In this document: piece after piece, positions 1-3,000 of the stretch
How the letters are laid out: each line of letters opens with the position of its first letter
How positions within the stretch are numbered: position 1 is the first letter of the stretch
Virus record (IMG/VR): IMGVR_UViG_2563366968_000002
Direction: 5' to 3' (one strand)
From: a virus
Taxonomy: Duplodnaviria > Heunggongvirae > Uroviricota > Caudoviricetes
DNA: 40,086 nt
Position numbers: made by a program

Positions 1-3000
1 CCCGATTTTCCGGGTCACTTCTGCGATATCCGTGTCCATCCGCTGACGGATGTCTTCTTCCAGTTGCGTGACCTCCGTACGCAGCGCTGAAGCATCAATG
101 CGCTCTTTCAGTGCCTGGCCCAGAAGCGTCTCATCTATCAGCCCCCGGAAAATTTCCAGATACCCTTCACCATCATTGCTGGGCTGCCCGCTGGCTTCCA
201 CAAAAGCAGATTTTCCCACCAGGTTGACGCTTCGCACGTAAAACCAGAAATCCGTCCCCGGCTTAATCCGGCTCCCCTGGACAGTCCACTGACTGCCGGT
301 CCCCAGATAACGGGCAGATTTTTCCACCTGTGCCGTGTTCGTGATGCGTTTTTCTGAGAACCAGAATTCAAACTGTACCGTCGGGTCATACACCGCAAGA
401 CGCGGGACCGCCGTTATCTGAAAATACCCCGGCGTCAGTTCAATGGTGGCGGGTTTTGCTGGCGCGTTAATCCGGAAGGTGGTGGTGGCCGGTTCGCCCT
501 GCTGGCCATAACTGTTAATCGCCCTGACCGTCAGGGTGTATTCCCCCAGTGGCAGGCCACTGAAACGGTGCTCCGTATCGGCAGTGATGGCGGTGGTCAG
601 CAGTCTGGCATCCGTTCCCTTACCACTGGTCAGGCGCAGACTGAAGCGCACGCCCTTCACCACCCGCGGCGTGTCCCATTTAGCCTGCGCCAGATACTGG
701 CCGTCAGCTGCGCTCACCTCCACCGTCAGGTGCTGTACTGCCGGTGGGATAACGCTGTTCAGGGAGCCTGACTGCGGCTCAAAGCGGGCCCCGTTATCCA
801 CGATGGCTTCTTTTTCCGGTACGTGCTGCACCGCCGTGATGGCAAAGGTGCCGTCCGTGTTTTCCCGGATGGAGACACAGCGGAACAGGCGACGGCGCAG
901 TGACGGCAGGGAGAGTCCCCACACCCCGTATGTCTCCACACCATCAGGCAGGGTACTGACCTGTATCCGGTCCGGCGCGGGGTGTTCGGTGATGTCCACA
1001 CTCACCGGCTTACCACTGCCGTTAATCAGGTTCACCGTGGCGGCACCGGTCTCCGGAAGTGTCACTTCACGGTCCAGCGTCAGGGTGCGGGTGGCAGCAT
1101 CAATGGACAGGACACGTCCGCCGGTCAGGGTCCCGGCATAGTCGTTATCACAGATTTCAATGATGTCACCGGGTGTGTGCCGCAGCCCCTGAGACCCGAG
1201 CGTGAAATCCACCGTCTGCGTTTCCAGCAGTTCGGTCTTTATCACCCACAGTCCGGCACGGTGGGCCTGACCGCGGCTGGTACAGCCGAACGCGTCCATC
1301 TTCAGCAGGTTGCGTCCGTAGCGCAGTATGGCTTCCGGGTCTTCCACCAGTTCCGTGGAGGTCTGCCAGCCGTTCTGCGGGTCGGTGTAATTCACCTCCA
1401 CCGCCGTGTGCCGGTCCTTCAGGGCACTGAAGCTGTAGCGGAATCCCACGCCGTTATCATCCACCACCACATCGCTGTTGGTGTACGGCCACACCACATC
1501 CGACGGGCGGTCCTGAACGAACGTCAGCGTCTGACCGTTCCATACCGGCATACAGCGCATCGCAGAGCAGAAATCACTGAGAACGTCCCACGCCTTACGC
1601 TGTTGTGCCAGGTACGCATTAAAGGTCATCCGCGGCTCGGTCCCCCCGAAACCATCCGGGACCGTCTGGTCGCAGTACTGCCCGATGGCATACAGCGCCC
1701 ACTTGTCCACATCCGCCGCCCCCAGACGTTTTCCCATGCCGTAGCGCGGGTGAGTCAGCATGTCCCACAGACACCAGGCCGGATTGTTGCTGTATGCCGG
1801 TTTCAGGCTGCCGTCCCAGATACCACTGTACGTGCGTTTTTCCGGGTCATAGTTTGACGGCACCTGAATGATGCGACCGCGGATATGGTAGTTCACCGTC
1901 ATCTGCTGGCCGCCGAACTGCTCCGCATCCACCTGCAGCCCCACAATGGCCGTGTTCGGGTAGCACTGTTTCACATCGATGATTTCGGTGTATGACGACC
2001 ACAGCGTCTTATTCTGCAGCTGGTCCGTGGTGCTGTCCGCCGTCTCCCTGACCATCCGGATGTTAAAGGGCCGGGGAGGCAGATTATCCAGAATCACCGA
2101 GGCCAGGAACTGCGAGGTGGTCTTGCCGTTAATGGTGACATCCTTTTCCGTCACCCAGCGGCCATTACGCTGTAACTGAATCAGAATCCGGACAGAGGAA
2201 GGATTACGGTCGCCCTTTGACGTGGTCTGCACCAGTGACTGCACCCCGAAGGTAACCCGCAGGCGGTCAATGTTCGCGGACGTAATGGTGCGCGTCACCG
2301 GTTTTGCCTTCGTCACTTCCACGCCCAGTCCGGTTTCAGCTCCGGAGGACTCAAAGCCTTCCGGTGGTGTCTGCTCCTGCTCCCCGGCACGCCAGACCGC
2401 AGTCACACCGTGTATCACGGGATTACCGTCCGTGTCCGTCAGCGGGGTTTTGTTCACCAGAATACTCTGCAGTCCCTTCACCGGACCTTCTATCGGTCCC
2501 TCACCAATCGCATCAATCACACTCATCATCTGCGTGGATTTGAGATTATCCTTCGCCTCACGAGGCGTGTGTGCCTTACCGCCACCTTTTCCCATACAGC
2601 CTTCCCCTGAATAAATTAACCGCCACTTGCCATTCCGTACAGAAGTCGGATATCCTTCGCCCGAAAAGCATGAAACACATTTCTGCCATGCTAAAGAGAA
2701 ACCCCGGTATCAGCAGATACCGGGGTTTTCTTTCATGCCCACCGATAATCCTGTTGGTTAAAACCGGTAATGGCATAAAAATTCTGAATATCTTCACATT
2801 TTCACAAACTGACTGTGGCGCGTATAATTTCTCTGCGTTAATTTTTTTGTCGTGATATAAGAATAATTCCTTACACTTAATCTTCGTAACTCTCCCGCAG
2901 TTCCTGTCCGCGATCACTGCGGGATTTTTTTATTCTTTTTACCCCTGCCGCCCGATAACCACGACCTTTCCGCCCCCGCCTTCATCACGGGTGCTGATGT

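Follow-up and report, generated by a model that had tools for sequence, protein, structure and literature searches.

Predicted Diverged Allele of the PasB Small RNA Gene in the Spacer Between Tail Genes I and J of a Caudoviricetes Sequence

Introduction

PasB is a small RNA (sRNA) of 83 nucleotides (nt) from enteropathogenic Escherichia coli (EPEC) O127:H6 strain E2348/69. It is encoded by prophage PP6 on the minus strand of NC_011601.1, positions 1466343–1466261 (Pearl Mizrahi et al. 2021, PMC8550237, table S6), is situated between E2348C_1436 (I) and E2348C_1437 (J), and was verified by a Northern band of the expected size (PMC8550237). Without hfq its level drops under activating conditions (log2 fold change of −6.8; PMC8550237, tables S2 and S6). 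PasB has rank 15 for interactions detected in EPEC by the sequencing of ligated, interacting RNAs (RIL-seq), and chimeras are reported with bfpB, bfpI, ftsZ (a fragment that spans the ftsZ start), galE, ler, perB and rplX (PMC8550237). This paper describes a related promoter-terminator unit in a phage sequence of 40,086 bp, IMG/VR record IMGVR_UViG_2563366968_000002 (Caudoviricetes), the whole of which is termed the window. The unit is on the plus strand, in the spacer between tail genes I and J.

A second group of related RNAs has been described in enterohemorrhagic E. coli (EHEC). EcOnc22, EcOnc23 and EcOnc24 are found in the Sakai prophages Sp15, Sp14 and Sp11, on the plus strand, and are crosslinked to Hfq; on Northern blots they appear as a band of about 85 nt, and deletion of hfq destabilises them (Tree et al. 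2014, PMC4104026, table S2). According to a 2021 review, their targets were still not known.

A moron is an additional gene that is situated within a late operon and has a promoter and a terminator of its own (Juhala et al. 2000, cited in PMC4104026). Other prophage moron sRNAs, i.e. AsxR/AgvB, HnrS (EcOnc10-12), PasA/C/D and DicF, are likewise short and Hfq-dependent, have their own promoter and intrinsic terminator, and are found in lambdoid late regions, where they act on host or virulence mRNAs. Unlike the unit described here, they are located near the Q, lysis or terminase region and not in the tail block, and their sequences show no similarity to the window RNA. AgvB, AsxR and HnrS were considered as the identity of this RNA and are excluded by both position and sequence.

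The Promoter-Terminator Unit of the Window

The elements of the unit are as follows.

2801–2828, plus strand: sigma-70 promoter of the pasB-type gene, with −35 box TTCACA (2801–2806), a 16-nt spacer and −10 box TATAAT (2823–2828); 11 of 12 consensus positions match.
2835–2931, plus strand: predicted PasB-family sRNA, W-type allele; primary transcript of 97 nt, based on folding and on alignments with the E2348/69 PasB and Sakai EcOnc22 sequences.
2893–2931, plus strand: Rho-independent terminator of the sRNA, with a 9-bp G+C-rich stem (2893–2901 and 2916–2924), a variable loop and a run of seven U residues (U7, 2925–2931).

The promoter is the sole match to at least 11 of the 12 consensus positions on either strand of the window; about 0.35 such matches are expected per window (first-order Markov simulations). 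Transcription is predicted to start at G2835, and 58 nt further on the terminator stem begins, in which UCCCGCAGU (2893–2901) pairs with ACUGCGGGA (2916–2924). The U7 run, where the family calls for at least four U residues, ends 8 nt short of the stop codon of I on the opposite strand. The terminator likely doubles as an Hfq-binding 3′ end. The 97-nt RNA gives a predicted folding energy of −19.4 kcal/mol (z = −3.0). In the alignment the published 5′ end of PasB corresponds to T2848, which is 13 nt downstream of G2835 and would give an RNA of 84 nt; thus a mature RNA of 84–97 nt is predicted.

An earlier reading made from the sequence only (the sequence-only reading) had pointed to a near-consensus promoter and a strong terminator on the plus strand, and to a transcript of about 100 nt (2835–2937) without a convincing open reading frame. 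Both signals were located as listed above, the transcript they delimit is close to the one proposed, and the open reading frames that cross the spacer give no match in Pfam or PHROG.

Identity with PasB

In the RefSeq annotation of NC_011601.1, the tail assembly protein gene I ends at 1466255 and the tail tip protein gene J starts at 1466496, both on the plus strand. PasB, on the minus strand, therefore opposes the tail genes and its end is 6 nt from I. The window unit has the same placement, i.e. in the I-J spacer, directed against the tail operon, with its terminator beside the I stop codon, and this is also found in Sakai Sp15, Sp11 and Sp12.

The promoter blocks of the window and of E2348/69 are identical at 36 of 38 positions. 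The last 25 nt, consisting of the 3′ arm of the terminator and U7, are identical to PasB (25/25), and the Northern probe for PasB, AATCCCGCAGTGATCGCGGAGCT, which covers the terminator hairpin (PMC8550237, table S6), matches the window hairpin. The motifs UCCUU and AUCUUC are also kept. The body of the RNA, in contrast, is diverged: a global alignment of the W-type RNA with the 83-nt PasB shows 65 identical positions over 90 columns (about 72%) with several insertions and deletions (indels), and the two spacers are unrelated in their left halves. Mosaic intermediates between the two sequences are described below.

The window thus displays a conserved, autonomous promoter-terminator unit without coding potential that is homologous to two experimentally supported sRNAs. 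By position and sequence comparison, the unit is identified as the pasB locus, in the form of a diverged allele (W-type) of a known sRNA family. The sequence-only reading had proposed a candidate moron sRNA within the tail gene block. This part of it gains support because the homologous unit at the same I-J position of E2348/69 is the published sRNA PasB, for which there is Northern and Hfq evidence; the reading did not recognise, however, that the family had already been described. What is new is a diverged, widespread and unannotated allele; the PasB family itself is known and no new kind of biology is involved.

Relationship to EcOnc22, EcOnc23 and EcOnc24

NC_002695.2 has the tail genes of both Sp15 and Sp11 on its minus strand, and the EcOnc peaks listed for these prophages fall within the I-J spacers. 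It should be noted that the Sakai coordinates in table S2 of Tree et al. (2014) are about 135–142 bp lower than those of NC_002695.2, both at 1.27 Mb and at 2.23 Mb. Two landmarks display the shift: AsxR is listed at 1268494–1268542 and is found at 1268629–1268681, and EcOnc10/HnrS is listed at 2234239–2234287, and its predicted 66-nt promoter-terminator unit is at about 2234371–2234436. After a shift of about +140 bp (NC_002695.1 versus NC_002695.2), the Sp15 and Sp11 peaks cover "CUGAAAAAUAACUCCAUAACGUUAAUCUUCAUCGUUCUCUCCCGCAGCUCCGCU...", which belongs to a third PasB-type allele and comprises its body and the 5′ arm of its terminator. Taken as listed, the coordinates would place EcOnc22 on the J-proximal hairpin; this placement is ruled out by the shift of about 140 bp seen at AsxR and HnrS/EcOnc10.

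The EcOnc22/23/24 RNAs resemble the window RNA in being Hfq-crosslinked RNAs of about 85 nt, positioned in the I-J spacer opposite the tail genes, with the same terminator stem and the same AAUCUUC. The EcOnc22 type differs in being a third allele, in which the −10 box is AATAAT and the 5′ half is another one. We infer from these comparisons that EcOnc22–24 belong to the PasB family, an equivalence that was not found stated by Tree et al. (2014) or in the PasB literature.

As a separate observation, with the same shift applied the best PasA match is not where EcOnc51 falls; EcOnc51 is then on a second terminator-like element, about 150 nt further downstream.

Allelic Classes and Their Distribution

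The pasB-type gene was surveyed in 120 viral contigs and in loci fetched from genomes. It occurs as 33 distinct sequences that form about six classes, with the following copy numbers.

W-type, the class of the window: 48 copies.
PasB-2, the O157 type, distinguished from PasB by C27A, which agrees with Zhu et al.: 42 copies.
PasB: 21 copies.
Class with a 4-nt deletion: 13 copies.
PhiR12-type mosaic: 4 copies.
Sakai EcOnc22 type: 2 copies.
Other: 1 copy.

In an alignment of 19 alleles, mosaic types (e.g. PhiR12_1 and locus L084) have CGUGACAUAA in common with the W-type and AACAACUCCUUAAC in common with PasB. Since the mosaics share stretches with both, the classes are considered to be alleles of one gene.

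The 97-nt W-type sequence is present with at least 99% identity in 613 of 5,426 complete E. coli genomes, where it is unannotated, and with 90%–95% identity in 588. Its hosts include E. coli isolates that do not carry an EHEC or EPEC label, e.g. FDA strain Seattle 1946 (NZ_CP149500.1, 100% identical) and VR50. It is also found outside of E. coli: a 1.4-kb contig of Escherichia albertii NBRC 107761 (NZ_BBMY01000220.1, locus L123) has a nearly identical W-type spacer with both the left module and the sRNA gene, and differs by one base, in the promoter spacer. The allele thus crosses a species boundary within Escherichia. When one genome per species was scanned for the exact promoter pattern, only E. 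albertii matched.

The distribution of PasB has one published survey, by Zhu, Shabalina and Storz (2026, bioRxiv 10.64898/2026.05.13.724894), in which bacterial genomes were searched with a word size of 28 and matches with more than 75% query coverage were kept. A blastn comparison of PasB with the W-type yields no match with that word size. If it is lowered to 11, only the 25-nt terminator is matched, about 30% of the query. With these settings and the coverage rule the W-type would not be counted, which fits the remark of Zhu et al. that PasB variants differ by a few nucleotides only (bioRxiv 10.64898/2026.05.13.724894).

Conserved Segments, Candidate Seed and Targets

Little or no change is seen across the 19 alleles in the two promoter boxes (−35 and −10), the first 10 transcribed nt, the motifs UCCUU and AAUCUUC, and the stem and U-run of the terminator. 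Variation, with indels of 1–6 nt, is found in the 5′ body and in the loop of the terminator. Within the stem, a 7-bp core (CCCGCAG/CUGCGGG) is invariant.

The conserved blocks and the unpaired probabilities point to a candidate seed:

2866–2886, plus strand: candidate seed region just 5′ of the terminator, with UCCUU at 2868–2872 and AAUCUUC at 2879–2885.

AAUCUUC is predicted to be mostly unpaired in all alleles. A seed just upstream of the terminator has also been proposed for PasB (Zhu et al., bioRxiv 10.64898/2026.05.13.724894); the W-type differs from PasB in the bases between and after the two motifs.

RNA.duplexfold was used to predict duplexes with the RIL-seq fragments of ftsZ, ler and galE, and these were compared with dinucleotide-shuffled controls, in nine tests. 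Two gave shuffle fractions below 0.05, both with galE (0.047 for PasB of E2348/69 and 0.010 for the Sakai allele); the rest were no better than shuffles.

The I-J Junction and Its J-Proximal Half

The spacer and its neighbours are as follows.

1–2595, minus strand: 5′ portion of tail tip gene J (865 codons), truncated at the edge of the window; GpJ domain families PF24801, PF13550, PF24421 and PF24489.
2596–2938, no strand assigned: I-J intergenic spacer of 343 bp, delimited by the flanking open reading frames and Pfam; a site of moron insertion within the late tail operon.
2690–2734, no strand assigned: second hairpin, bidirectional terminator-like, with a 13-bp stem (2699–2711 and 2716–2728), between the pasB promoter and the J start.
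2939–3619, minus strand: tail assembly gene I (PF06805), stop codon at 2939–2941, convergent with the sRNA gene.

The tail genes of the window are on the minus strand. I shows the Pfam family Lambda_tail_I (E-value = 1.8e-16), and J has its ATG at 2595–2593 and a frame that exits the left window edge, with E-values of about 1e-40 for the GpJ families. The sequence-only reading had described the spacer as expanded, about 340 bp compared with about 60 bp in lambda, and this is what was measured: the lambda junction is 60 bp (15445–15504). The window junction, 343 bp with a promoter and a terminator, therefore has the properties of a moron site, and another prophage carries sodC at the same junction (see below). 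The spacer is present in 1,662 of 5,426 complete E. coli genomes, none with a RefSeq annotation under it, and across alleles the promoter hardly varies.

A second hairpin noted in the same reading was found as a 13-bp stem at 2699–2728 with strong predicted folds on both strands, −32.2 kcal/mol (z = −6.7) on the plus strand and −27.1 kcal/mol (z = −4.8) on the minus strand. An A-run precedes the hairpin and a T-run follows it, so that it resembles a bidirectional terminator. The J-proximal half of the spacer, from 2597 to about 2775, and the E2348/69 spacer are unrelated. In phage records this half is found as 13 identical copies only, all at I-J, so that nothing is learnt about its origin.

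Three unrelated versions of the J-proximal segment (window 2690–2734; locus L002, 3431–3464, plus strand; locus L124, 3265–3232, minus strand) each display a strong hairpin that is followed, on the tail-sense strand, by a T-run. In all three it is located between the J start and the sRNA promoter, and the version in the window is the bidirectional one. In hairpins of the CAGGCA type the stem varies at two positions. One variant is changed on both sides (U-A replacing C-G). Three types are changed on a single side. A G-U wobble is retained on the tail-sense RNA in two of them (the commonest, with 13 copies, and one present as a single copy) and on the opposite strand in the third. These stem variants and the three versions suggest a conserved tail-sense intrinsic terminator upstream of J, inside the late tail operon.

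A side observation concerns this half. A second small plus-strand RNA is possible at 2627–2735 of the window, with a weak promoter (TTGCCA, 18 nt, TATCCT; 9 of 12) and a predicted start near 2663. This left-module RNA, of about 73 nt, would consist of a 6-bp stem-loop, a AAAGAGAAA linker of the (ARN)3 type and a strong hairpin with UUUUCUUU; no peak in the Hfq crosslinking and analysis of cDNA (CRAC) data is listed for its near-identical copy in Sakai Sp12.

In E. coli O157:H7 F8492 (NZ_CP038282.1; locus L136, 882–1409 and 1501–1594), the I-J spacer contains sodC (Cu,Zn superoxide dismutase) with its own terminator, on the pasB strand. It replaces the pasB promoter; downstream of it, an sRNA body and terminator of W-like sequence are retained. 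The presence of sodC at this position shows the junction to be a recurrent moron insertion site.

Proposed Function and Alternative Explanations

The spacer probably contains a stand-alone sRNA gene of the PasB/EcOnc22–24 family, a moron between I and J directed against the late operon, whose product would function in the lysogen as a trans-acting, Hfq-dependent RNA. An Hfq-dependent RNA of about 83–85 nt is known for the E2348/69 and Sakai alleles, and Hfq-mediated chimeras with mRNAs for PasB of E2348/69 (PMC8550237, PMC4104026). By analogy with these, host sigma-70 RNA polymerase would start at about G2835 in the lysogen and would stop at the intrinsic terminator, a short distance ahead of the I stop codon, with an RNA of about 84–97 nt as the product. 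Its 3′ hairpin and U-tail would bind Hfq, and the unstructured UCCUU...AAUCUUC region would pair in trans with host or virulence mRNAs. The second hairpin may terminate tail-sense transcription, such that only Q-modified polymerase would read through during lytic growth. A late transcript that reads through the spacer would be fully complementary to the sRNA.

Several points weigh against this interpretation. The transcription of the W-type gene in a lysogen is extrapolated from its homologues. The 5′ ends differ by about 13 nt, which reflects either RNA processing or a published, coverage-based end that is only approximate. The link to EcOnc22 depends on a coordinate shift that is itself deduced, and the PasB-2 copy of Sakai Sp12 is not among the listed CRAC peaks. 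Rfam has no PasB model; Rfam 15 gave no family at the gathering threshold in the spacer, where the best sub-threshold hits are noise (e.g. STnc310, 19 bits compared with a threshold of 40), and permissive thresholds likewise gave none. RNAalifold applied to the 19 alleles recovers only the invariant terminator core, with no compensatory change and no covariation support; covariation is thus neutral and no structural argument is drawn from it. Predicted duplexes of the window allele with ftsZ, ler and galE never beat the shuffled controls (shuffle fractions 0.64–0.93), and in the PasB literature the function of the Pas sRNAs, including the direct targets of PasB, is stated as not known.

An alternative, considered unlikely, is that the sRNA acts mainly in cis. 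Here the sRNA or convergent transcription would regulate the I-J junction, by RNase III cleavage, by interference with J, or with the late mRNA as a sponge at induction; such a role would be compatible with trans activity. The geometry is fixed in every allele, i.e. the gene is always between I and J and convergent with I, with the terminator 8 nt from the I stop codon, and a tail-sense terminator is present just downstream in three unrelated spacer types. However, the RIL-seq chimeras of PasB with unlinked mRNAs and its Hfq dependence are typical of trans-acting sRNAs, lambda and many relatives work without the insert, and in F8492 the replacement of the promoter by the sodC moron has brought no evident harm to the tail operon. 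A cis-antisense or sponge role in lytic growth is no more than conceivable.

It is quite improbable that the W-type is a decaying or silent relic that produces no functional RNA and keeps its promoter and terminator only through recent divergence of the prophages. Most copies are at least 99% identical, and conservation within the W-type is thus uninformative; the missing covariation and the missing Sp12 peak also fit a relic. Nevertheless, across alleles that are about 28% diverged and contain indels, both promoter boxes (−35 and −10) are intact, as are the terminator stem and its U-run, while the loop and the 5′ body drift. In addition, of three diverged alleles (PasB, the EcOnc22 type and the PasB-2-like type) two have direct Northern and Hfq evidence.

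The idea that the spacer encodes a small protein, e.g. from the 113-aa minus-strand open reading frame at 2576–2917 (a hypothetical or tail fiber protein in some phage records), can practically be dismissed: such frames exist mechanically and two phage records annotate a coding sequence under the spacer, but the frames crossing it (113 aa on the minus strand, 94 and 44 aa on the plus strand) are not conserved, the left half of the spacer is exchanged for unrelated sequence in other prophages, allele indels are not multiples of three and break the frame, and the predicted RNA has no open reading frame longer than two codons.

The interpretation as a trans-acting PasB-family sRNA is the preferred one. 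Because the body is about 28% diverged, the target set of the W-type may differ from that of PasB of E2348/69. A further step, which is doubtful, would be to regard the W-type RNA as a functionally distinct PasB member with its own targets, present in more than one-tenth of sequenced E. coli. In this view the I-J spacer would be an insulated cassette, in which the tail-sense terminator and the complementary late mRNA (as a sponge or cleavage substrate) might couple the sRNA to the switch between lysogeny and lysis.

Other RNA Elements of the Window

Matches to Rfam families are found elsewhere in the window. AsxR (63 bits, exactly at threshold) is at 25440–25492 on the plus strand and STnc100 (132 bits) is at 25496–25704 on the minus strand; the two are convergent and 3 nt apart. 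The pair is just downstream of three tRNA genes (25783–26029, minus strand), at a Q-proximal moron site typical of Shiga toxin (Stx) phages. The gaps among the tRNA genes, STnc100 and AsxR are too small for an stx operon there. C4 antisense RNA (79 bits; 33933–34020, minus strand) and isrK (59 bits; 34045–34121, minus strand) adjoin one another, a pair that suggests a P1/Gifsy-type antirepressor immunity module in the prophage.

Significance of the W-type Allele

PasB is among the most interaction-rich accessory sRNAs of EPEC, and the I-J slot that it occupies holds at least five or six allelic classes. The W-type, together with EcOnc22–24, widens the PasB family well beyond the genomes labelled EHEC or EPEC. 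The allelic classes constitute natural seed variants for the mapping of targets.

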